NCBI GenBank assembly: GCA_051002495.1
Contig: JBPCMH010000223.1
Location: 1 to 28,139, forward strand
Length of the DNA stretch: 28,139 nucleotides
Direction of reading: 5' to 3'
Source: Acidimicrobiales bacterium
Lineage (GTDB): Bacteria > Actinomycetota > Acidimicrobiia > Acidimicrobiales > CADCTF01
Below are positions 5,908-17,398 of the stretch, piece after piece. Position 1 is the first letter of the stretch. Each line of letters opens with the position of its first letter. The translations under genes were made by a program, and so were the position numbers. The notes under the pieces were generated by a model. That model was not told the DNA's origin. It made no database searches and saw nothing but the letters and a program-made list of their open reading frames with translations.

Positions 5908-7299
5908 TCAGGCTCGGGGCTGGCAAGCCAGCGAGACCTGCTCCATGGAGTAGCGGATCCGGGCCAGCGACTCCCGACTGGCTTCCTCTGCCGGACGGAC
6001 GGCCCAGCCTCCAAGCCATGCCAGTTCAGCCTCTGATGGGCCGAGCGCGGGATCAAGCGACGCGGCGGCGACCAAGTGCGGGCTCACGGCATCAACCACG
6101 GCTCGTGTCGCTTCCTGAGTGGGAAGCTCCCATCGCGGCGACGAGGCGAAGGTTTGCCATGCCGGACAGGTCTGGCCGAGCGAATCCCGGATCGCCGTTT
6201 CCTCAGCCGAAAGCGGCGCGGGCCCGGCGACCGCCTGTTTCGGCGGCGGATCGCCAGCCAGGATCGACCCAAGCACCGTGCCGCCGACGGAGACGACGAT
6301 CACGGCCACGACGATGGCCACAAGTCGCGGCACGAAAAACCTGGCCCACGTGCGGGGATCGGGGCTGACCTGATCGACCCGGCCCCGGAAACAGGTGCCC
6401 AAGGAGCCTTCCGCGTCGACGGCCTTGTTGGCCCGCCCAATCCAGGTCAAGGCAATCGGCGCGGTGTGGCGCCGCGTGATCGTCACCTGCCCACCGATCG
6501 GGCACTGCCAGACGTCGGCCGCGACGATCTGTTCGTCTGGGATCACAACGGCGGACGGGTCCGCAGTCCGCAACTGTCCGACCGACATGCGGACGGCGTT
6601 CGCTGGGCTGACTCGCTTGGCTCGCACCAAGGCCAACCATCCGGGGCCAATGACTAGGTGCCGGGCGCCGCGACCCGCGCCGCGAAGCCCGAGCAGCGCG
6701 GCCGCCGGCGCTCCTTCCGGGTTCGACGCCGGAACTACTACCTCACCGGTGGCCCGCACGGCTTGGGCATCAGCCCGAGCGCTGGCGGTGCGATCCTTGC
6801 GCGACGGCCGACCCTTGACAGGCGCGTGAGCGGTCTGGGCGGTCTGTGCCGGCGATGGGGCTGGCGATCCGGCTGGCGATGGGGCTGGGCGCGCGGGCGC
6901 GGCCACGCCTCCACGCCCGGATTGCTCGACCCGGGGGGCAGGACGGGCCGCGGTCACCGGTTGGGCTCGGCCGGCCATGCTCGGCGGGGGTGCCGATGGT
7001 CGAGCGGCGGGTTGGGCCGGACTCGGCGCGCCAGTCGTCGGCGGCTCAGAACGCGCCATCGGTGCCTGCGGCGGAGCGGGCTGGGGCCGATGCGTGGGTC
7101 GCGCGACAGGCGCCGGCGGCGGGACGGGCCGCTGAGCGACCGGGGCCGCTGGTACCGGCGGGGCCACTGGTGCGGGCGCGACGGTATTGACCGGCGGCGG
7201 CGCGCCGCCGTCCCAGGTCTCACAGACGCACTTGCCGGTGACCCGATTCAGCAGGCGCCCGCAACTTGAACACGTCTTGACGGTTCCAGGCTCACCCAC
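5908..7299 (-). CDS. Hypothetical membrane protein: N-terminal Cys cluster (Zn-ribbon-like), long Pro/Ala-rich linker, globular domain, one TM helix, C-terminal helical domain
   Basis: CSSC-x10-CVC near the N-terminus; about 150 aa rich in P/A/R; TM segment LVAIVVAVIVVSVGGTVLGSILA; GTG start at 7299. It fills the space between whiB and the divergent antiporter. Confidence 0.7.
   Translation of the reverse strand: MGEPGTVKTCSSCGRLLNRVTGKCVCETWDGGAPPPVNTVAPAPVAPPVPAAPVAQRPVPPPAPVARPTHRPQPAPPQAPMARSEPPTTGAPSPAQPAARPSAPPPSMAGRAQPVTAARPAPRVEQSGRGGVAAPARPAPSPAGSPAPSPAQTAQTAHAPVKGRPSRKDRTASARADAQAVRATGEVVVPASNPEGAPAAALLGLRGAGRGARHLVIGPGWLALVRAKRVSPANAVRMSVGQLRTADPSAVVIPDEQIVAADVWQCPIGGQVTITRRHTAPIALTWIGRANKAVDAEGSLGTCFRGRVDQVSPDPRTWARFFVPRLVAIVVAVIVVSVGGTVLGSILAGDPPPKQAVAGPAPLSAEETAIRDSLGQTCPAWQTFASSPRWELPTQEATRAVVDAVSPHLVAAASLDPALGPSEAELAWLGGWAVRPAEEASRESLARIRYSMEQVSLACQPRA
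6851..6886. repeat. Three tandem 12-bp units (GGCGATGGGGCT / GGCGATCCGGCT / GGCGATGGGGCT) inside the Pro-rich linker
   Basis: Read directly from the sequence; lies in the stretch encoding PAPSPAGSPAPSP on the minus strand. Confidence 0.8.
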
Positions 7300-7377
7300 A
7301 GTGCCCTATTCATCGGCAGCCCCCACCCCCCAACTTGAGGATCAAGGCCAAAGTGTCGGAGGGCCCGTGGCGACTCC

Positions 7378-7383
7378 TAGGAT
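7378..7383 (+). promoter_or_regulatory. Putative -10 element (TAGGAT) for the antiporter-glpD operon
   Basis: TANNNT 8 nt before GTG 7392. Confidence 0.4.
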
Positions 7384-7391
7384 GGCCCGGC

Positions 7392-8702
7392 GTGACGACA
7401 ACCGACCAGGATCTCCACGAAGACATCCACCCCGGCCGGCAGCAGCTTTCGCTGGTTCTGGCCATCGCCACCACCGTCCCTGGGATCGTGTTCCGGCTGG
7501 GTGGCATCCACGTCTCCGACCCGATCGACGCGCTGATCTACGGCATGTCGATCATCGGGGCGGCTTTCTTGTTGTCGTGGGCCGCTGAGGCCGCACAGCT
7601 CGACATCAGCGCGGGCTTGGCCATCGCCGTGCTCGCCTTCATAGCCGTCCTGCCTGAGTACGCCGTCGATCTGGTGTTCGCCATCAAGGGCGGCAACGCG
7701 GTCCAGGAGTTCGGAGCGGCGTGCCAAGCGCCTGGCGCGACCGGCGAGACTAACTGTGCGCTGGCCCTGGCCAACATGACCGGCGCCAACCGCTTGCTCA
7801 TCGGCGTCGGCTGGACGGCAGTCGTGTTCATGGCGTGGTGGCGCTACCGAGGGCGTGGCGTGAAGATGCACGGCATCAAGCTCAACCGAAGGCACTCCGT
7901 GGAGTTGTCGTTCCTTGCCATCGCCACGATGTACTCGCTGACGTTGCCATTGAAGAAGTCCATCACCCTCGTCGACGCGGCCATCCTCGTCGCGATTTTC
8001 ATCGCCTACACCATCCGGATCTCGCGAGCTCCGGCGGAGGAGCCGCACCTGGTCGGACCGGCACGCTGGATTGGATCGTTCTCGACAGCCGGGCGACGGG
8101 GCAGTGTGATCGGCCTCTTTTTCTTTGCCGCCACGGTCATCCTCCTGACCGCTGAGCACTTCGCCGAAGCCCTTGTAAACACCGGAGCCACGCTCGGCAT
8201 CAGCGAGTTCTTCCTGGTTCAGTGGCTGGCCCCGCTCGCATCCGAGGCCCCAGAACTGCTCGTGGCGCTGCTGTACGCCTATCGCCTCAACACCAACGCC
8301 GCCCTCGGCACCCTCGTATCGTCGAAGGTCAACCAATGGACGCTGTTGGTCGGCACCTTGCCCATCGCCTTCGCCATCGCGTCGGGCAGCACCAACGGGC
8401 TCCCACTCATCGCTCGACAGCGCGACGAAGTCCTCCTGACCGCGGCACAGTCGTTCTTCGCGGTGACAGTGCTGTTGAACTTGGAGATGTCGGTCAAGGA
8501 GGCCTGGGCGCTGTTCACCCTCTTCTGGGCGCAGTTCATCCTGGGCGCGGTGGTTCCGGCCGAGCACCACAACACCGAACTGGTGGCGTTTTCGATCATC
8601 TACGTCGTCATCGGGTTGGTCCTGCTTGCCCGACGCCTCGGTGTAGCCAAGACCCTGCTCAAAGATGGAATCCGAACGCCCTATTCGGAGATGGGCGCGT
8701 GA
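7392..8702 (+). CDS. CaCA-family (Na+/Ca2+ exchanger-like) cation antiporter
   Basis: About 10-11 hydrophobic segments and two alpha-repeat-like motifs (AVLPEYAV...NMTGAN and ASEAPE...LVSSKVNQWTL). Start set to GTG 7392. The stop overlaps the glpD start (GTGA). Confidence 0.8.
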   Translation: MTTTDQDLHEDIHPGRQQLSLVLAIATTVPGIVFRLGGIHVSDPIDALIYGMSIIGAAFLLSWAAEAAQLDISAGLAIAVLAFIAVLPEYAVDLVFAIKGGNAVQEFGAACQAPGATGETNCALALANMTGANRLLIGVGWTAVVFMAWWRYRGRGVKMHGIKLNRRHSVELSFLAIATMYSLTLPLKKSITLVDAAILVAIFIAYTIRISRAPAEEPHLVGPARWIGSFSTAGRRGSVIGLFFFAATVILLTAEHFAEALVNTGATLGISEFFLVQWLAPLASEAPELLVALLYAYRLNTNAALGTLVSSKVNQWTLLVGTLPIAFAIASGSTNGLPLIARQRDEVLLTAAQSFFAVTVLLNLEMSVKEAWALFTLFWAQFILGAVVPAEHHNTELVAFSIIYVVIGLVLLARRLGVAKTLLKDGIRTPYSEMGA

Positions 8703-10360
8703 GCCAGCCGGCCGCCCGCACCGCCTTCGACCGGGCGACATCGCTCAAGCGACTCGCAGCCGACCAGTACGACGTGCTCGTGATCGGCGGCGGCATCACC
8801 GGGGCGGGGGTGGCGCTCGACGCGGCCGCGCGCGGGTTGCGCACCGCCTTGGTCGAGAAGGACGACTTCGCATCAGGCACGTCGTCAAAGTCGTCGAAGT
8901 TGATCCACGGCGGGCTCCGGTACCTGCAACAGAAGGAGTACCGCCTGGTCTACGAGAACCTGGCCGAACGGCAGCGCCTTCTCGAGAACGCTCCGCACCT
9001 GGTGAGCCCATTGCCCTTCCTGATCCCGCTGTTCGGCAAGGATGGCGCGGTCAACAAGGCCGTGGCCAAGGCCTACCGCACCGCGCTGTGGCTCTACGAC
9101 CTCACCGGAGGCGTGCGGATCGGGCGCCGGCACTCTCGGGTGACGAAGGAGGAGGTGCTCGAACACTTCCCCACCCTTCGAACTGATCGCCTCGTGGCCG
9201 GGTTCCTCTACTGGGACGCCAGAGCCGACGACGCCAGGCTCACCCTCGCCGTGCTCCGCACCGCGGTGCTCGACCACGGCGCGGTCGCGGTCAACCACGC
9301 ACCAGTCACCGACCTGATCTCCGAGGACGACACCGTGACCGGCGCTCGCCTCGCCGACGGCACCCAAATCAGGGCTGCGGTGGTCGTCAATGCCACCGGC
9401 GTGTGGTCGGATGAGATTCGGGCGATGGCCGAAGGCTCCGACCCCGACTCGATCCGGCCAGCCAAGGGCGTGCACATCACCGTGCCGAGGGCGAAACTGC
9501 CGTGCGACATCGCGTGTGTCGTACCCGTCCCGAAGGATCGCCGGTCGATTTTCGTCGTGCCATGGGGCGACGAGGTCTATCTGGGCACAACCGACACCGA
9601 TTACGACGGACCGCTCGACGATCCCCGCTGCACCGAAGCCGACGTGCGGTACATCGTCGATGCCATCAACACCTTCATCACCGCACCCATCGAGGCCAGC
9701 GACGTCGTGGGCACCTGGGCCGGGCTGCGCCCCCTCGTGAAAGAGACCGACGACGTCCGCACCGCTGACCTGTCCCGTCGGCACAAGGTCATGGTCTCCG
9801 GGGGTCGGCTGGTCACCATCACCGGAGGCAAGCTCACGACCTACCGGAAGATGGCGGCCGACACCGTTGACACCGTCGTCGATCTGCTCCCTAACCGAGC
9901 CCCCAAGTCGGCCACCAAGAAGCTCCGTCTCGTCGGCGCTGTCGGCCATGAGGCACTCACGCGCGATGGCGCCGCCGCTCGGCTTGGGACCGATGCCGCA
10001 ACGCTCGACCACCTGGTCCATCGGTATGGCACCGAGGCTCGCGTGATCCTGGCCATGATCGAGGCCGATCCCGATCTGGGCCGACCCCTGGTCAACGGAC
10101 TCCCCTACTTGCGGGCCGAGGCCGTCTTTGCCGCCCGCTACGAGATGGCGATGACGGTCACCGACGTCTTGAGCCGGCGGACTCGCGGCATCCTGCTCGA
10201 CCGCGACGGTTGTGCCGCAGCGGCCGATGATGTTGCCCGGCTCCTCGCACCGGAGCTCGGCTGGACTGCCGATGAGGCCACCAACCAAGCCGCCGCGTTC
10301 CGCGCCGTGGCCGACGCCGAGCGTCAGACGGCGACCGAAGTCGACTTGGAGCTGACCTGA
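8699..10360 (+). CDS. glpD: FAD-dependent glycerol-3-phosphate dehydrogenase/oxidase
   Basis: DVLVIGGGITGAGVALDAAARG, DFASGTSSKSSKLIHGGLRYL, DDARL, VVNATGVWSD, AKGVHI, GTTDT, WAGLRPL and TITGGKLTTYRKMA. True start is GTG 8699, overlapping the antiporter TGA; the ORF-track start 8222 lies inside the antiporter. Confidence 0.92.
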   Translation: MSQPAARTAFDRATSLKRLAADQYDVLVIGGGITGAGVALDAAARGLRTALVEKDDFASGTSSKSSKLIHGGLRYLQQKEYRLVYENLAERQRLLENAPHLVSPLPFLIPLFGKDGAVNKAVAKAYRTALWLYDLTGGVRIGRRHSRVTKEEVLEHFPTLRTDRLVAGFLYWDARADDARLTLAVLRTAVLDHGAVAVNHAPVTDLISEDDTVTGARLADGTQIRAAVVVNATGVWSDEIRAMAEGSDPDSIRPAKGVHITVPRAKLPCDIACVVPVPKDRRSIFVVPWGDEVYLGTTDTDYDGPLDDPRCTEADVRYIVDAINTFITAPIEASDVVGTWAGLRPLVKETDDVRTADLSRRHKVMVSGGRLVTITGGKLTTYRKMAADTVDTVVDLLPNRAPKSATKKLRLVGAVGHEALTRDGAAARLGTDAATLDHLVHRYGTEARVILAMIEADPDLGRPLVNGLPYLRAEAVFAARYEMAMTVTDVLSRRTRGILLDRDGCAAAADDVARLLAPELGWTADEATNQAAAFRAVADAERQTATEVDLELT

Positions 10361-11862
10361 TGGGCGACGGGCGGCACGAGGGTCCGCCGCTGCCAACGCC
10401 GCGGCACGACGCGCCCACTCGCTTTGAACCGACCGATCTTCCCGCAGGCTTCGCCGATCGACTCGCTCAGGTTTGCCCCACGGTCACCACCGAGCCCGGC
10501 GACCTGGCCGAGGCCGGGCGCGACTGGTGGCCGCTGTCGATCAACTGGGCCGCGGGAGGCGAGCTGCCGGCGCGGCCGGGTGTCATCGCTCGGCCGAGTA
10601 CCACCGCTGAAGTCGCCGCCGTCGTTGGCCTGTGCAACAGCGAGCGGGTCCCGGTCACCGCAGCCGGTGGGCGGAGCGGCGTCTGTGGCTCTGCGGTGCC
10701 GGTGCACGGAGGGGTGTCGCTCGACACAACGGGCCTCGTCGGCATCGAGGCCGTTGACGACGACTCGCTGTTGCTGCAGGTGTGGTCGGGAACCTACGGA
10801 GATGACCTCGAGCGCGACCTGCGCGCCAACCACGGTGTGACGCTCGGGCATTGGCCGCAGTCGATGGCGCTGTCGACCGTCGGCGGTTGGCTGGCCTGCC
10901 GATCAGCCGGTCAGTACTCAAACCGCTACGGGAAGATCGAGGACATGGTGATGGGCCTCGAGGTGGTGCTGGCCGATGGTTCGGTGATCCGCACGGGAGG
11001 CCGCGGGCCACGATCCGCTTCCGGTCCTGACCTCAACCAACTATTCGTGGGCAGCGAAGGCACCCTGGGGGTGATCACCCGCTCCACGCTGCGGGTGCAC
11101 CCGCTGCCCGCGTCCGAACAACGGTCAGCGTGGTCGTTTTCGTCGTTCGCAGAAGGACTCGCGGCCTGTCGCCGAATGCTGCGTCGAGGCGCAACGCCGG
11201 CTGTCCAGCGCCTGTACGACCATCGAGAGTCAAAGCAAAATTTCGATATCGAAGACCGCCATGTACTCATCATCCTCGACGAGGGCGACCCGGCCATCGT
11301 CGATGCTACCATGTCCATCGCGGCTGAAGAGTGTCGAGATGGTCAGCGAGAGGACGACGCCCTGGTCGAGCGGTGGCTGGGGCATCGCAACGACGTCAGC
11401 GGGCTGGGGAGCGCCATTTCCCAAGGTCTCGTCGTCGACACGTGTGAGATCGCCGGGCCGTGGGCGATGTTGCCGGGGCTGTACGAGGCAGCCGTTGAGG
11501 CCGTGAAGGCGGTTCCGGGGGCGTGGACTGCCTCCGCGCACCAGTCTCACGCCTACCTTGACGGCGCCTGCCTCTACTTCACCTTCGCCGGCCAACGGGA
11601 GGACGACACCGACGGGCTCTACCGGGAGGCGTGGGACGCCATCACCAACGCCACCCTGGAGCGGGGAGGGGCTCTCAGCCACCACCACGGCATCGGGCTC
11701 AACCGGGCCCGGTTCATGCAGGAGGCCCTCGGCGACAGCTTCCACACGCTGGTCGCGATCAAGGCAGCACTCGACCCAAACGGGATACTGAACCCCGGCA
11801 AGCTTGGGCTGCCGACCCCGTTCGGCGACGGCGTTGTCTGGCTGGCCGGAGGCGCGGTCTGA
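10360..11862 (+). CDS. FAD-binding oxidoreductase, alkyldihydroxyacetonephosphate synthase (AGPS/ADPS)-like
   Basis: GGRSGVCG, LGHWPQS, STVGGWLACRSAGQYSNRYGKIEDMV, GSEGTLGVIT, SHAYLDGACLYFTF and SHHHGIG match the VAO/PCMH fold and ADPS-type motifs. TGATG coupling on both sides. Confidence 0.85.
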   Translation: MGDGRHEGPPLPTPRHDAPTRFEPTDLPAGFADRLAQVCPTVTTEPGDLAEAGRDWWPLSINWAAGGELPARPGVIARPSTTAEVAAVVGLCNSERVPVTAAGGRSGVCGSAVPVHGGVSLDTTGLVGIEAVDDDSLLLQVWSGTYGDDLERDLRANHGVTLGHWPQSMALSTVGGWLACRSAGQYSNRYGKIEDMVMGLEVVLADGSVIRTGGRGPRSASGPDLNQLFVGSEGTLGVITRSTLRVHPLPASEQRSAWSFSSFAEGLAACRRMLRRGATPAVQRLYDHRESKQNFDIEDRHVLIILDEGDPAIVDATMSIAAEECRDGQREDDALVERWLGHRNDVSGLGSAISQGLVVDTCEIAGPWAMLPGLYEAAVEAVKAVPGAWTASAHQSHAYLDGACLYFTFAGQREDDTDGLYREAWDAITNATLERGGALSHHHGIGLNRARFMQEALGDSFHTLVAIKAALDPNGILNPGKLGLPTPFGDGVVWLAGGAV

Positions 11863-13307
11863 TGAGCAGCGTTCTCGTCGTCGACGTCGGCACCAGCGGC
11901 GTCCGAGCCGCGGTTGTCCACGGGACGGGAGAAATCGGGGCCGTCCGCTACCGCGAGGTGTTGCCCGAGACACCCATGCCGAACTTCGTGCAGTTCGACG
12001 CCGGGCTGATGGCCCGAAGCGTGATGGAGGTGACCGCCGCGGCCATGGCCGACGCCGGGACGGTCGACGCGGTCGGTATCGCCAACCAGCGGGCATCAAC
12101 CATCGTCTGGGATCGCGCCACCGGCGAGCCCGTCGGCCCCGGCGTCGGATGGCAGGATCTGCGCACCGTCGGCACCTGCCTTGCCCTGCGCGACCAAGGC
12201 CACCGCGTGGCCCCAAACGCCTCAGCCACCAAGCTGTCGTTCCTCCTCGATATGGCCGACCCTGACCGGTCCCGCGACCTGTGCTTCGGGACCGTCGACA
12301 CCTGGGTTGCGTGGCATCTCTCCGGTGGGTCGCTGCACGTCATCGATGCAACCAACGCGGGCGTGACGGGCCTACTGCTCGGGGACGGCACCGACTGGAA
12401 CGACGAGATCCTCGCCGCGCTGAACATTCCTCGCTCGGTCCTGCCGACCATCGTCGACTCGAGCGGTGTCATCGGAGAAGCGACAGCCGTGAGCGGCTCA
12501 CCGCCGATCGCCGGAATCGCCGGCGATCAACAGGCGTCGCTCATCGGCCAGAGTTGCGTCGAACCCGGACAGGCCAAGATCACCTTTGGCACCGGCGGGA
12601 TGCTTGACATGTGCGGCGACGAGTCTCGACCGTCCTTCGACGTGCGCGGCGGTGGTGGCTGCTTCCCGATCATCGCTCGCCGCATTGACGGCCGGACCAC
12701 TTGGGGCGTCGAGGCAGTCATGCTCTCCGCCGGAACCGCCGTCGAGTGGCTCCGCGACGACCTCGGGCTCGTTCCTGATGCCGCCGCCACCGAGGAACTG
12801 GCCAACAGCATCGACAGCACCGGCGACGTGTGGTTCGTGCCCGCGCTCATGGGGCTGGGCACCCCCGATTGGGACTTCGGTGCGCGCGCCGCGCTGGTTG
12901 GGTTGACCCGTGGGACGGGTCGGGCCGAAATTGTGCGAGCCGTGCTCGAGGGAGTGGCCCACCGTGGAGCCGATCTGGCCGAGGCGGCCGAGACGGACGG
13001 GTCAACGACCATCGAACGACTACGCGTTGACGGCGGCATGGCGGCAAACGGCTTCTTTGTGCAAGCGCTGGCCAACGCCTGCCAGCGTCCGGTCGAGGTC
13101 TCCCCTGTGCTGGAGGCAACGACCCTCGGTGCGGCCTACCTCGCCGGGCTGGCCGTCGGCGTGTGGTCAGGCCTCGATGAGATCGCCGGGCTCTGGTCAC
13201 CGGCGGAGGTCGTCACGCCGACCAAGGCACCGTCACGGGAGCGCTGGAAGGCCGCCGTGGAACGCTCGAAGAACTGGGTGCCTGAGTTATCCAGCCTGGA
13301 CTTCTGA
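11862..13307 (+). CDS. FGGY-family carbohydrate kinase, glycerol-kinase-like
   Basis: VDVGTSGVRA, GIANQRASTIVWD, WQDLRT, AGDQQASLIG, KITFGTG, RVDGGMAAN and EATTLGAAYLAG. Start is ATG 11862 (TGATG overlap), not 11631. glpK symbol withheld because pocket residues differ. Confidence 0.88.
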   Translation: MSSVLVVDVGTSGVRAAVVHGTGEIGAVRYREVLPETPMPNFVQFDAGLMARSVMEVTAAAMADAGTVDAVGIANQRASTIVWDRATGEPVGPGVGWQDLRTVGTCLALRDQGHRVAPNASATKLSFLLDMADPDRSRDLCFGTVDTWVAWHLSGGSLHVIDATNAGVTGLLLGDGTDWNDEILAALNIPRSVLPTIVDSSGVIGEATAVSGSPPIAGIAGDQQASLIGQSCVEPGQAKITFGTGGMLDMCGDESRPSFDVRGGGGCFPIIARRIDGRTTWGVEAVMLSAGTAVEWLRDDLGLVPDAAATEELANSIDSTGDVWFVPALMGLGTPDWDFGARAALVGLTRGTGRAEIVRAVLEGVAHRGADLAEAAETDGSTTIERLRVDGGMAANGFFVQALANACQRPVEVSPVLEATTLGAAYLAGLAVGVWSGLDEIAGLWSPAEVVTPTKAPSRERWKAAVERSKNWVPELSSLDF

Positions 13308-13312
13308 ATCAA

Positions 13313-15466
13313 TCAGAACGATGACCGGGCTTCTCCAGCCGCGACCCGCTGCTCGAGCTCCTCTAGCAGCGCATCAACCTTGCCCCGTTCCTCATCGCCG
13401 AGTGGACGTGGTCCGAACCCGTCAGCCTCGATCGCCGAGCCGAGCGCTTCCAACCGTGGATCCGGCAGCACGCTGAACCGCAAGGCTCTGGCGTAGCGGG
13501 CTGGCGCCTCGGTCGGGCGTCGCTCGCGTCCCGCTTCTGCACCGAGCTCTTCGAGGCGATCCATGGCCACCACCCGCCAAGGGCGCGCCCGGCGTTCGCT
13601 CCTTCCGACGACGACGCGCCGCGTTCGGTCACCGATCAGGCCGGCCAGCAACAACCCACCGATCGCCGTCGCGATCAGGATCATGGTGGAGCGGGAAGGA
13701 AGACGACCACCGAGCCAGGTCGCCAGGCCGGAACCAGCACGGTCGGACACGTAGTCGCCAGCGAGCGGAACCTCCGCGGTGGGGTCGAATGCCTGCCACC
13801 CGACGCCGGGGAACAGCACCTCAGCCCAGGAATGCGCGTCTGACGCACGAACCTCGTAGAGGCCGGTGAAGGGGTTCCGTTCGCCCGGCGTGTAACCAAC
13901 CGCCAAGCGGGCGGGAATGCCGAGGGACCGCAACATCACCACCAGCGAGGAGGCAATCTGTTCGCAGAAGCCCTGCCTGTCCTCGAACAAATACTGCTCA
14001 ACGGCGTCGGCCCCACGGGGCAGCGGTGGGATGTCGAGGGTGTAGGTGGTGTTGACCGCCATCCACCGTTCGAGCGCCCTCACCTTGTCATAGGTGCTGG
14101 GCTCGCCCTGGGTGACATCCCGGGCCAGAGCCGCAACTCTGGCGGGCAGAGGCTCGGGCAGTTGCAGATACCGAGCCCGCAGCGACTGCCAATCCGGCGA
14201 GTCGGGAAGGAGGACCGCGTCAGAGCTGCGCAGCATGGGCTCATCAACCCGAAGCCGGCGGCTCGACACGGTGTAGACGGCGCCCTCGTTCAGCTCGACA
14301 CCGGTTCTGATCGTGCCATCGCTCATCTCGAAGACGGCGCGATCGGCGATGTAGAGCTGGTCAGCCACGTTGGCCGCGAAGATCACGTTTGGCCCGGCCC
14401 GCTCGATGTAGAAGGTCTGCACGAACGGTTCGCCCCGCTCCCGGATCTGCTGGGCGACGTCCTCGGGCGCGCCCCGGAGGCTGATCGGCGACTCGCTGCG
14501 ATTCACTTCGGGCTTGTCATCGGTCTGACGCCACGTCCGGCCGTCCCAACTGTCAAACGTCTGACCTCGCCAGAAGTCTGGTCGGGAGGCCTTGACCCGC
14601 ATAACGAGGGTGTTGTCCGGCCGGCCTCGGATCGATGTGTCGAGCTCGGTCGAGAACCCGAAATAGCCGAAGGATGCCCGGCCGCCCTGGTCCTCGCCGG
14701 GCCGGCCAGGGTCACTTTGGCCGAGCGACGAGTTGGAGAGCCCACCCGCTTGCGGGACGGCGAGTCGGCTACGCAGGCTGGCCGGAAACGTGACCGCCCG
14801 ACCGGGACCGGCCTGGGGCACGACCAGCATCACCAGCAAGCCGAGCGCCAACACGAGCGTTGCCGCGGCGACGATTGGCCCAATACCGCTCGCCTTGATT
14901 GGCGGAGGTGACGGTGCCCCGTCGCGCACCGAAAGCGCCGGCAGGTCACGGAGCTCGCTGCGATAGGCCAACGCCAGCGAAACCAGAGCTGCCACGGCCC
15001 ACACCGCGAGGTTGATACCCAAGCCGGTCGAGCGGGAGAGCACGCCAGCAACGCCGATGAGCACGAGGCTCGACACGAGGGAGAAGAGAAGATCGCGCCT
15101 GGCGGGAACATCCATGGAATGCAGCACCTGCACCCAGAGGAAGAGCTCTGCTAGCGGCACCTGCACGGCCAGAACCTCCGATGCGCTGAACACCCGCATC
15201 AGGAAACCGGCGAACGCGACAACCACACCGATCGCGAGGAACGCCTTCAGGACAAACCCTGGTCGGAATCGCGCCCAGTGCGAATAGGCGAACCCACCGG
15301 CGACGCCGGCGGTCGCACCGATCTGAAGCCCGATACCGCCGATCCCCTGGCCCACAACCGCGTGGATGGCTGCCAGCACAGCGATGAGCACTGCGACCCG
15401 GAACGGGATCGACTCCTCCGGGGTGGCCTTGGCGTTGACCTTCCGGATGCTGTCCATCGCGCTCAT
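13313..15466 (-). CDS. Membrane transglutaminase-like protein (TgpA/DUF3488 type)
   Basis: Multi-TM N-terminus, YWRG-like FWRGQTFD, and a Cys-His-Asp triad in GFCEQIAS...GIPARLAVGY...DAHSWAE...FDPT. Confidence 0.9.
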   Translation of the reverse strand: MSAMDSIRKVNAKATPEESIPFRVAVLIAVLAAIHAVVGQGIGGIGLQIGATAGVAGGFAYSHWARFRPGFVLKAFLAIGVVVAFAGFLMRVFSASEVLAVQVPLAELFLWVQVLHSMDVPARRDLLFSLVSSLVLIGVAGVLSRSTGLGINLAVWAVAALVSLALAYRSELRDLPALSVRDGAPSPPPIKASGIGPIVAAATLVLALGLLVMLVVPQAGPGRAVTFPASLRSRLAVPQAGGLSNSSLGQSDPGRPGEDQGGRASFGYFGFSTELDTSIRGRPDNTLVMRVKASRPDFWRGQTFDSWDGRTWRQTDDKPEVNRSESPISLRGAPEDVAQQIRERGEPFVQTFYIERAGPNVIFAANVADQLYIADRAVFEMSDGTIRTGVELNEGAVYTVSSRRLRVDEPMLRSSDAVLLPDSPDWQSLRARYLQLPEPLPARVAALARDVTQGEPSTYDKVRALERWMAVNTTYTLDIPPLPRGADAVEQYLFEDRQGFCEQIASSLVVMLRSLGIPARLAVGYTPGERNPFTGLYEVRASDAHSWAEVLFPGVGWQAFDPTAEVPLAGDYVSDRAGSGLATWLGGRLPSRSTMILIATAIGGLLLAGLIGDRTRRVVVGRSERRARPWRVVAMDRLEELGAEAGRERRPTEAPARYARALRFSVLPDPRLEALGSAIEADGFGPRPLGDEERGKVDALLEELEQRVAAGEARSSF

Positions 15467-15467
15467 G

Positions 15468-16385
15468 TCACCACGCCCCGACCACGATCACTTCGCCTGT
15501 GGCGAATCCATCTGGGACGGGCTGTGGGCCTGATCCGTGAGCACGGGCCAGACGCCGGCCCGCCTCGGTGGCGGTGGTGACGGGGCCGGCGACAGTGCCG
15601 GAGTGTTCCCGGGTGACGAGCACCACGCGGCGACCAGCGATGAGCGCGGCCCCGATCAGCCCCGCGGTCTTGCCGGCAGCACGTTCGGCCTGATCCACCG
15701 GACCGCTGAGGTCGGGAGTCACGACGAGCACGCGCTCAGGGTCTCGCTCAAGTTCCTTGATCATCGGCTCGCCGCGGCGGGCCGTGGCTGGCCAGTGCAT
15801 CAGCCGAACCGAGTCACCGGCACGGTATTCGCGGGCGCCCCTGACAGTGTCGCCATCTCCGGCTGACCGGGCAAGTGCGTCGCCATCTTCAGGGGCTGCA
15901 CCGTCTGCCTCGGGAACGTCGTACGGAAGCGGGGCGGGACCGACCTCGATCGCGGGCGTGAGCGGACGCTTCCACCGCCGCTTCCACCAGAAGACGCCAA
16001 GCGGCGCCCCGCACTCCGCAGCCAACCGCACCTCGGTCAGCACGCCTCGGCATTCCGGCACGAACGCCAGGCCGCCAACCGCGCCGCCCACCACGCTTGT
16101 CCATGGCCCCGGCGGGTCGACGACCCTGATCCGCATGGCGGGACCAGTCACGGTCACGATGAGTTCGGATGGTGAACCCGCCGTCGCGTCGTGAGGGCTT
16201 TGTAACTCGATGTCGGCGCGAATCATGGCCAGAGCGGGCATCACGACACCAGCAATCAGCAGACCGGCCGCCACCGACACAACCACGATGATCCATCCTG
16301 ACCCCGTCGTGCGGGCGATCCCCCACAACGCCAAGCTGACCGCGATCAGCGTGACCGCAGTCCGGCTCAGCCGGCCAGGGCGCAT
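15468..16385 (-). CDS. DUF58 domain-containing protein
   Basis: Two N-terminal TM segments and GAREYRAGDSVRLMHWPATARRG (REY-x2-GD...HW-x-ATAR, the DUF58 hallmark); sits between moxR and the transglutaminase. Confidence 0.88.
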   Translation of the reverse strand: MRPGRLSRTAVTLIAVSLALWGIARTTGSGWIIVVVSVAAGLLIAGVVMPALAMIRADIELQSPHDATAGSPSELIVTVTGPAMRIRVVDPPGPWTSVVGGAVGGLAFVPECRGVLTEVRLAAECGAPLGVFWWKRRWKRPLTPAIEVGPAPLPYDVPEADGAAPEDGDALARSAGDGDTVRGAREYRAGDSVRLMHWPATARRGEPMIKELERDPERVLVVTPDLSGPVDQAERAAGKTAGLIGAALIAGRRVVLVTREHSGTVAGPVTTATEAGRRLARAHGSGPQPVPDGFATGEVIVVGAW

Positions 16386-16387
16386 CG

Positions 16388-17398
16388 TCAGGCCTTCGGC
16401 GTCGGTACCGTTTCGAGCAGTCGCTCGACGATGGCCGCGGCCGCTCCTCCGTCGGCCGATCCGGCCAGCACGAGGCGATGGCTGAGTGCGGCGACGGCGA
16501 CAGCCCGAACGTCATCGGGCGACACATAGGGGCGCCCACTGAGCGCGGCGTTGGCCTTGGCCGAGTGGAGCAGGGCAATGCTCGCTCGCGGGCTCGCACC
16601 GAGCCGCACATCCGGGTGATGTCGCGTGCCGTCGGCCAGGTCGAGCACATAGTCGGCAACGGCGGGCGCGCAATGCACCTGCCGGACGATCCCGACTGCG
16701 GCCTCGATGCCGTCCGTAGGACACACCGGGCCCAGTTCGGCGAGGTGATCGGTGCCGCCAACGCCAAGCAGGAGCTCCTTCTCGGCATGGCGAGGCGGTG
16801 GTCCGAGCTCGACCAGCAAGCCGAACCGGTCGCGTTGGCCTTCGACCAACGGGAAGGTGCCAGCGTGATCGATTGGGTTCTGGGTGGCGACCACGAAGAA
16901 CGGTGCGGGGAGGGGCCAGGTGGTGCCGTCGACGGTCACCTGCCGCTCCTCCATGGCCGCGAGGAGCGCCGACTGCGTGCGGGGCGTTGCCCGGTTGATC
17001 TCATCGACCAGCACAACGTGGTGGAACAGGGGACCAGGACGGAACTCCCAATCGTCGGTGTCCCTTCGCAGCACGCTGACCCCAGTCACGTCGGCTGGCA
17101 GCAGATCGGGCGTGCCCTGAACCCGGCCGAACGAACCCCCTACCGATTGGGCCAGAGCTTTGGCCAGCAAGGTCTTACCGACGCCGGGCACGTCCTCGAG
17201 CAAAAGGTGATGGCCACTGAGGAGTGCGACCAGCGCGAGGCGCACAGCATCGGGCTTGCCCCGCACGACCTTGCCCAAGTTGTCGGTCATGGCCCGGCCA
17301 AGGTCGGCAACGGCTTCAACAGCCAGGCCATGAGCCGTCGCGGTGCGCGGCAAGTCAGTCGACGCTGAGGTCACGTCTCCATCATCGGCCATCTGCAC
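16388..17398 (-). CDS. moxR: MoxR family AAA+ ATPase
   Basis: HLLLEDVPGVGKT (Walker A), RVQGTPDLLPADVTG, LVDEINRATPRTQSALL (Walker B), ATQNP, DRF and GASPRA. Start uncertain (17398, 17392 or later). Confidence 0.93.
   Translation of the reverse strand: MQMADDGDVTSASTDLPRTATAHGLAVEAVADLGRAMTDNLGKVVRGKPDAVRLALVALLSGHHLLLEDVPGVGKTLLAKALAQSVGGSFGRVQGTPDLLPADVTGVSVLRRDTDDWEFRPGPLFHHVVLVDEINRATPRTQSALLAAMEERQVTVDGTTWPLPAPFFVVATQNPIDHAGTFPLVEGQRDRFGLLVELGPPPRHAEKELLLGVGGTDHLAELGPVCPTDGIEAAVGIVRQVHCAPAVADYVLDLADGTRHHPDVRLGASPRASIALLHSAKANAALSGRPYVSPDDVRAVAVAALSHRLVLAGSADGGAAAAIVERLLETVPTPKA

Follow-up and report, generated by a model that had tools for sequence, protein, structure and literature searches.

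An operon of Pseudomonas aeruginosa that encodes an AGPS-like protein, a GlpD homologue and an FGGY kinase is the closest described counterpart of the gene cluster analysed here, which lies in a 28,139-nt stretch of DNA (the window; JBPCMH010000223.1) from the metagenome-assembled genome of an uncultured Acidimicrobiales bacterium, a genome that is 78% complete. In P. aeruginosa, PA3026 carries the AGPS-like annotation, PA3025 encodes the GlpD homologue and PA3024 the FGGY kinase, and the operon is activated by the AraC-type regulator GliR/PA3027 (Kotecka et al. 2021, PMC8151288). It is followed by a gene for a diacylglycerol-kinase-like protein and shares its activator with the phospholipase C PlcA, and a route from glycerol to alkylglycerone phosphate has already been proposed for it by Kotecka et al. 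2021 (PMC8151288). The same three families are found in one operon beside the cell's normal glpK and glpD (PMC8151288), and we liken them to the window proteins at the level of family. The gene order differs: AGPS-like, GlpD, kinase in P. aeruginosa, with PA3023, a divergent AraC regulator gene and the diacylglycerol-kinase-like gene, and GlpD, AGPS-like, kinase behind a CaCA gene in the window.

AGPS itself, also called ADPS (EC 2.5.1.26; structures 4bby and 2uuu, and Myxococcus xanthus MXAN_1676), shares the VAO/PCMH FAD fold and the Arg, Tyr and HHH residues with P0002, the middle protein of the window. The identity is 25–28%, P0002 groups apart from Myxococcota-type sequences in a midpoint-rooted tree, and proteins of its kind are accompanied by GlpD and a kinase, whereas true AGPS genes have no such company. 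The M. xanthus Agps contributes to ether-lipid synthesis. The canonical glycerol regulon (GlpF-GlpK-GlpD; glpP-glpFK-glpD in Bacillus subtilis) resembles the window in its intact GlpD site and GlpK-family kinase, and a GlpP-family gene is present in some relatives of the window cluster; the window, however, has no GlpF, its kinase pocket is changed, an AGPS-like enzyme is added and the real GlpK is encoded elsewhere. In the erythritol pathway of Brucella and Rhizobium, the FGGY kinase EryA phosphorylates the polyol and the GlpD homologue EryB oxidises the product to a keto-phosphate. Its kinase-then-GlpD-type logic is alike, and the keto-phosphate needs further chemistry at the carbon adjoining the carbonyl, but the window has no EryC-, TpiA2- or RpiB-type isomerases, its third enzyme is AGPS-like and its kinase scores best as GlpK. 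Literature searches on the gene trio, on bacterial alkylglycerol catabolism and on ether lipids in Acidimicrobiia returned nothing on point, and a search on the neighbourhood of Mycobacterium tuberculosis glpD1 (Rv2251) found no functional study.

The cluster is not novel, its module type having been published as PA3026-PA3024 without biochemistry, and the window holds another member. Tentatively, we read it as the Acidimicrobiia form of a widespread kinase/GlpD/AGPS-like module, one that may serve the breakdown or salvage of a glycerol derivative substituted at C1.

Enzymes of the module

The gene for P0002 (500 aa) extends from an ATG at 10360 to a TGA at 11860–11862 (10360..11862, + strand) and encodes FAD_binding_4 and FAD-oxidase_C domains; a VAO/PCMH-type FAD-binding domain and a cap domain are both present. 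The initial annotation had called this enzyme AGPS-like, and AGPS does come top in a sequence search against solved structures, with Dictyostelium AGPS (2uuu) at 7e-50, guinea-pig AGPS (4bby) at 5e-49 and mouse D-lactate dehydrogenase at 3e-34. A HMMER alignment to 4bby pairs Arg419 with R284, Thr568 with S396, Tyr578 with Y406 and His615–617 with H441–443, the last encoded at 11680..11688 (+), exactly where the HHH triad had been placed. The motif quoted in that annotation, SHAYLDGACLYFTF (P0002 residues 396–409), does cover the catalytic Tyr region of mammalian AGPS, and the equivalent of the catalytic residue is Y406, the Tyr of CLYF within this motif, not Y399. The R284/S396/Y406/HHH set is invariant or nearly so among 32 and among 70 diverse homologues; in the latter H441 never varies, and conservation of H442 and H443 is at least 90%. 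Many homologues of P0002 are named alkyl-dihydroxyacetone-phosphate synthase (alkyl-DHAP synthase) by the JGI pipeline.

Among the proteins of the 80 loci that we fetched, the signature positions read R, S, H, Y, Y, H, H, H in all those of 32% identity or more, as against E, G, H, gap, H, G/A, E, H in the next, GlcD-like tier, where the His and Glu form the metal site of D-2-hydroxyacid dehydrogenases. It is by this residue signature, and not by fold, that P0002 is placed in the AGPS family. AGPS is the best Foldseek match of P0002; in a structure comparison the fold of P0002 ties between AGPS and D-lactate dehydrogenases. An identity as D-lactate or glycolate dehydrogenase was rejected on the active-site signature, although the fold ties. 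In the predicted model P0002 is a shorter form of AGPS: its residue 4 pairs with AGPS residue 89, leaving ~88 N-terminal residues of the guinea-pig enzyme without counterpart, and ~100 of the residues in the AGPS crystal model remain unpaired. AGPS, which exchanges acyl for alkyl on DHAP, is characterised by an N-terminal extension with a gating helix and by a hydrophobic tunnel that takes the fatty alcohol.

The kinase gene (11862..13307, +; ATG 11862) encodes a GlpK paralogue of 481 aa with FGGY N- and C-terminal domains (PF00370 and PF02782). The best solved relatives of this protein are glycerol kinases, down to 4e-101. The protein scores 381 bits against TIGR01311, under the cut-off of 590, whereas the canonical GlpK of the same genome scores 628 bits. 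Aligned to 1bo5, E. coli GlpK, it keeps R83, W103 and D245 and replaces E84 by Ala, Tyr135 by Asn and F270 by Met; these six residues are the glycerol-binding set of the E. coli enzyme, with D245 catalytic. The score under the cut-off and the loss of E84 and Tyr135 bear out the earlier view that this is not an ordinary glycerol kinase. The change is shared by its relatives: in 50 kinases that adjoin AGPS-like genes (from Acidimicrobiia, Streptomyces, Nocardia, Nonomuraea, Actinomadura, Paraburkholderia and Promethearchaeota), QRA/G-S/T replaces QRET and Tyr135 is absent throughout, with R83, W103 and D245 kept. All six glycerol-binding residues are kept in the canonical GlpK, which is encoded on another contig of the same genome (G000:C454:7078-8544). 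Nearly all module-bearing genomes contain both kinases, the canonical GlpK being located roughly 15–30 kb away in many Acidimicrobiales, and an atlas look-up with the window kinase returned only its own kind. From the signature common to the 50 linked kinases, and with a canonical GlpK encoded elsewhere, we therefore regard the kinase as a distinct subfamily tied to the AGPS-like gene. Judged by its residues, it most likely accepts a compound that has the reactive CHOH-CH2OH end of glycerol and a different far end. The canonical glpK (locus L001) has genes for an Eis-like GNAT/SCP2 acetyltransferase and a GAF-GGDEF-EAL protein as neighbours, and neither glpF nor glpD lies beside it.

The first enzyme of the trio, P0001, is a GlpD-type FAD-dependent glycerol-3-phosphate dehydrogenase of 553 aa (8699..10360, +; GTG at 8699, TGA at 10358–10360) with DAO (PF01266) and DAO_C (PF16901) domains. 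It scores 331.5 bits against the NCBIfam glycerol-3-phosphate dehydrogenase model NF008899, narrowly under the cut-off of 360, and its closest solved relative is Bacillus halodurans GlpD (3da1, 1.5e-92). R54, H233, T270, R317, R332 and K354 of E. coli GlpD, which reportedly form the substrate site of that enzyme (Yeh et al. 2008), are all present in P0001 and invariant among 33 module GlpDs. P0001 is the sole GlpD match in its own genome. Among 120 sampled Acidimicrobiia genomes, each at least 90% complete, ~51 contain a close orthologue of the AGPS-like gene, and in ~42 of these the adjoining GlpD is the only GlpD match (E ≤ 1e-30). From the intact active site and this sole-GlpD status, P0001 is most likely the cell's working glycerol-3-phosphate dehydrogenase, with plain glycerol-3-phosphate as at least one substrate, whatever else it may oxidise. 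The initial annotation had tied the trio to a candidate ether-lipid pathway; of this proposal the AGPS-like enzyme, the altered kinase and the conservation of the unit find support, and a lipid substrate so far does not.

The module in other genomes

The genome scan for related loci used a 10-sequence alignment as query and yielded 80 independent loci, those mentioned above. About 40 of them, in Acidimicrobiia, have GlpD, AGPS-like and kinase genes in this order on one strand, and because order and strand recur in so many independent loci the linkage of the trio is beyond chance. The three genes are thus a conserved unit, as had been supposed. The conjecture that similar clusters exist in other bacteria is likewise borne out, by loci across Actinomycetota, in Paraburkholderia and in Bacillota and by the published P. 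aeruginosa operon (PMC8151288). Streptomyces, Nocardia, Nonomuraea, Actinomadura and Paraburkholderia have the order kinase, GlpD, AGPS-like, and the Streptomyces, Nocardia and Paraburkholderia version reads MFS sugar porter, kinase, GlpD, AGPS-like protein and GlpP-family protein, with an alcohol dehydrogenase gene 3' of GlpP in Streptomyces and Paraburkholderia loci. The GlpP-family gene (PF04309, 'G3P-responsive antiterminator', G3P being glycerol-3-phosphate) closes the module at L049:8574-9233, L042:8440-9066 and L053:8453-9028; the family was defined in Bacillus, far from this setting. In many Acidimicrobiia a small hydrophobic protein of ~130–140 aa, probably with four membrane spans and belonging to no Pfam family, is encoded between the AGPS-like and kinase genes (L087:9488-9907 and loci L022, L028, L029, L031, L038, L039 and L050); it is absent from the window.

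In a tree of AGPS-like proteins, those with both neighbours form one clade (SH-aLRT 100), distinct from sequences of Myxococcota and Chloroflexota that lack these neighbours and from a Kribbella/Streptosporangium type with a divergent GlpD; the tree comes from a quick search with a midpoint root only, and was built without eukaryotic or named M. xanthus sequences. Among 300 sampled gammaproteobacterial genomes there were 2 matches at E ≤ 1e-60. A prediction of a complex between GlpD residues 15–540 and AGPS-like residues 30–495, made with alignments, gave a score close to zero and is evidence neither way. GlpD-AGPS fusion proteins (P0145 and P0205) were left out of account, since the TGATG overlap may have produced them through a frameshift or faulty gene calling.

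The conserved linkage of the trio bears on the view that the locus is a plain glycerol operon whose kinase is redundant and whose flavoprotein is a passenger, serving some unrelated function. A near-canonical, single-copy GlpD would suit such a view, as would the lack of a phenotype upon deletion of the P. aeruginosa operon (PMC8151288). The trio, however, travels together across phyla and even domains in varying order, the kinase signature is specific to AGPS-like company and the genes overlap stop to start, and we consider a passenger highly improbable. The overlaps in the window are those reported in the initial annotation: the GlpD/AGPS-like and AGPS-like/kinase junctions each read TGATG, with one base shared.

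In Bacillota and Promethearchaeota, iron-sulfur proteins join the company. The Bacillota version comprises a GntR regulator, an AGPS-like protein (sometimes fused to Fer4/CCG), a CCG protein, a GlpA-like protein, a kinase, an FAD oxidoreductase and a DUF1667 protein, and the Promethearchaeota version an AGPS-like protein, a CCG protein, a kinase and an alpha/beta hydrolase; a tblastn search of the Asgard locus L056 with P0001 as query found no GlpD. Fused forms of the AGPS-like protein include additions of Fer4_8 plus CCG or of a Cof-type HAD phosphatase, and tandem doubles of 900–1000 aa (P0152/P0285, P0194, P0142 and similar). The main rival to our reading draws on this company: the AGPS-like protein may act as a genuine redox dehydrogenase on a small phosphate or hydroxy compound resembling glycerol, working beside GlpD rather than after it and passing its electrons on to an Fe-S partner, to O2 or to quinone. 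The Fer4_8 plus CCG fusions P0152 and P0285, the separate CCG gene that follows the AGPS-like gene in Bacillota and Asgard loci, including the apparently GlpD-free L056, and the fold tie with D-lactate dehydrogenases all speak for a dehydrogenase, and the CCG-linked forms still keep the Tyr and HHH residues. The active-site signature of P0002 is, on the other side, that of AGPS and not the GlcD-like one, and the window has no Fe-S partner. We regard this dehydrogenase as somewhat unlikely. A CCG/Fer4 gene near L087, a close relative of the window locus, was considered as such a partner and rejected, being part of a divergent rubrerythrin/DUF3501 group, and it has no counterpart among the annotated open reading frames of the window.

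The unit in the window, on the + strand in DNA of ~67% G+C, consists of four co-directional genes rather than three, because the stop codon of a CaCA gene (Na/Ca-exchanger family; a multi-pass membrane protein matching PF01699 at 1.2e-18 in two stretches) overlaps the start of glpD as GTGA. The start of the CaCA gene (7335..8702, +) is uncertain, TTG 7335 being the earliest in frame. A CaCA gene is upstream of the module only here and in L087, and in 0 of the 80 other loci, which marks it as a lineage-specific addition. Directly 3' of the kinase, a convergent set on the − strand (13313–17398; a TgpA-like transglutaminase, a DUF58 protein and a MoxR AAA+ ATPase) ends the unit. On its other side, the open reading frame 5908–7299 (−) would encode a Pro/Ala-rich protein of 463 aa with a Cys-rich N-terminus (CSSCGR...CVC) and without a Pfam match; its third-position G+C is 0.75, as against 0.80–0.85 in adjoining genes, and we list it as a possible gene only. 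A promoter and terminator scan of 7000–13600 gave no signal above chance, an Rfam scan of the window found no RNA family, and no regulator, lipase, acyltransferase or fatty-alcohol gene was seen in the window operon.

Candidate reactions

The window yields domain content, residues and gene linkage, and no decisive evidence on the reaction. In the breakdown or salvage that we favour, the paralogous kinase would phosphorylate not free glycerol but a derivative of it, altered at the end remote from the hydroxyl that receives the phosphate. GlpD would then oxidise C2, giving a dihydroxyacetone phosphate (DHAP) substituted on C1, and the AGPS-like flavoenzyme, equipped with a Tyr base, the HHH loop and an Arg and working by way of an N5 adduct of its flavin at C1, would swap the substituent for water and so release DHAP for glycolysis. 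The same GlpD would also handle the cell's glycerol-3-phosphate in general, as supplied by the ordinary GlpK from its separate locus. In the AGPS mechanism of Nenci et al. 2012, the adduct carbon reportedly carries N5 and an oxygen substituent, making it an N,O-acetal. Because it is an N,O-acetal, loss of an alcohol as well as of a carboxylate is possible there, and alkylglycerol chemistry is plausible. A long-chain alkyl ether is one candidate for the C1 substituent, and a small soluble one is at least as likely. The catabolic-looking companions of other versions (an MFS sugar porter with a GlpP-like protein, a GntR regulator, an alpha/beta hydrolase) support breakdown or salvage, as do the gene linkage, the kept AGPS residues, the module's own clade, the changed kinase pocket and the intact GlpD site. 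Given the sugar-type transporters, the GlpP-like protein and the Fe-S partners found elsewhere, a soluble glycerol derivative or a redox role fits as well as a lipid.

Several observations weigh against breakdown or salvage. The fold of P0002 is as close to D-lactate dehydrogenases as to AGPS. In anaerobes and Asgard archaea an Fe-S CCG protein is fused to the AGPS-like protein or directly follows it, which implies a net electron transfer that an AGPS exchange does not need. A metagenomic form has a Cof-type HAD phosphatase fused to the AGPS-like protein, a poor fit to DHAP as end product. Six genomes have a module-type GlpD without an AGPS-like gene. In an Acidimicrobiales genome (G071:C8:102964-106473) a module-type GlpD and a module-type kinase lie side by side, uninterrupted by an AGPS-like gene, the only AGPS-like genes of that genome being distant ones ~80 kb off. 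Deletion of PA3026-PA3024 left growth of P. aeruginosa on glycerol and its BIOLOG profiles unchanged (PMC8151288).

Were the substituent a long alkyl chain, the module would salvage ether lipids, the kinase making 1-O-alkyl-glycerol-3-phosphate, GlpD converting it to alkyl-DHAP and the AGPS-like enzyme releasing DHAP and a fatty alcohol. The AGPS catalytic residues are kept, the kinase has lost the pair of polar residues that grip glycerol at its far end, and GlpD-type enzymes are generally located at the membrane, all of which accord with a lipid substrate. So do the lipid kinase gene into which the P. aeruginosa operon runs and the activator that it shares with phospholipase C (PMC8151288). 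The sole known enzyme that cleaves alkylglycerol ethers is reported to depend on O2, and another cleaving route would therefore be needed. FGGY kinases, on the other hand, are soluble and act on sugars or polyols, the versions found in Streptomyces, Nocardia and Paraburkholderia have genes for a sugar-porter MFS transporter and a GlpP-like protein in place of lipid genes, the window operon has no lipase, acyltransferase or fatty-alcohol gene, and P0002 is shortened, with the ~88 N-terminal and ~100 modelled crystal residues of AGPS unmatched. Salvage of long-chain ether lipids is, on balance, unlikely. Distinctly unlikely, in our estimate, is oxygen-independent cutting of glycerol ethers, in which an alkylglycerol-type kinase and GlpD would lead to a 1-O-substituted DHAP and the AGPS-like enzyme would hydrolyse it through the flavin N5 N,O-acetal, the reverse of ether-lipid synthesis. 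Alkylglycerol kinase activity (EC 2.7.1.93) is not known to have an assigned gene.

The opposite direction, the making of ether-lipid precursors, would have glycerol converted to glycerol-3-phosphate and DHAP, an unlinked acyltransferase supplying acyl-DHAP and the AGPS-like enzyme forming alkyl-DHAP. Synthesis is what Kotecka et al. 2021 proposed for P. aeruginosa (PMC8151288), and it accords with the AGPS catalytic residues and the JGI label on many homologues. It is nevertheless quite improbable: the kinase pocket is unlike that of glycerol kinase and an ordinary GlpK is already present in the genome; the module is linked neither to a DHAP acyltransferase nor to a fatty-acyl reductase; the proven Agps type, that of Myxococcota, groups in another clade of the tree and has no GlpD or kinase neighbours; a text search of the literature found no report of ether lipids in Acidimicrobiia; and other versions carry catabolic-style regulators and transporters.

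The module occurs in about half of the sampled Acidimicrobiia genomes, and also in Streptomyces, Nocardia, Paraburkholderia, Bacillota, Pseudomonas and Asgard archaea; QRA[ST] without Tyr135 is its kinase marker across phyla. Cultured carriers exist, among them a record labelled Ferrithrix thermotolerans, Streptomyces pulveraceus and a Paraburkholderia sp. For the Acidimicrobiia themselves, the module GlpD doubles as the only GlpD in the ~42 of 51 genomes mentioned above. If the reaction is ether cleavage, it would account for ether-lipid recycling without oxygen, and, if such oxygen-independent cutting is true, enzymes of the AGPS family would, throughout bacteria and Asgard archaea, not only make ethers but also break them.

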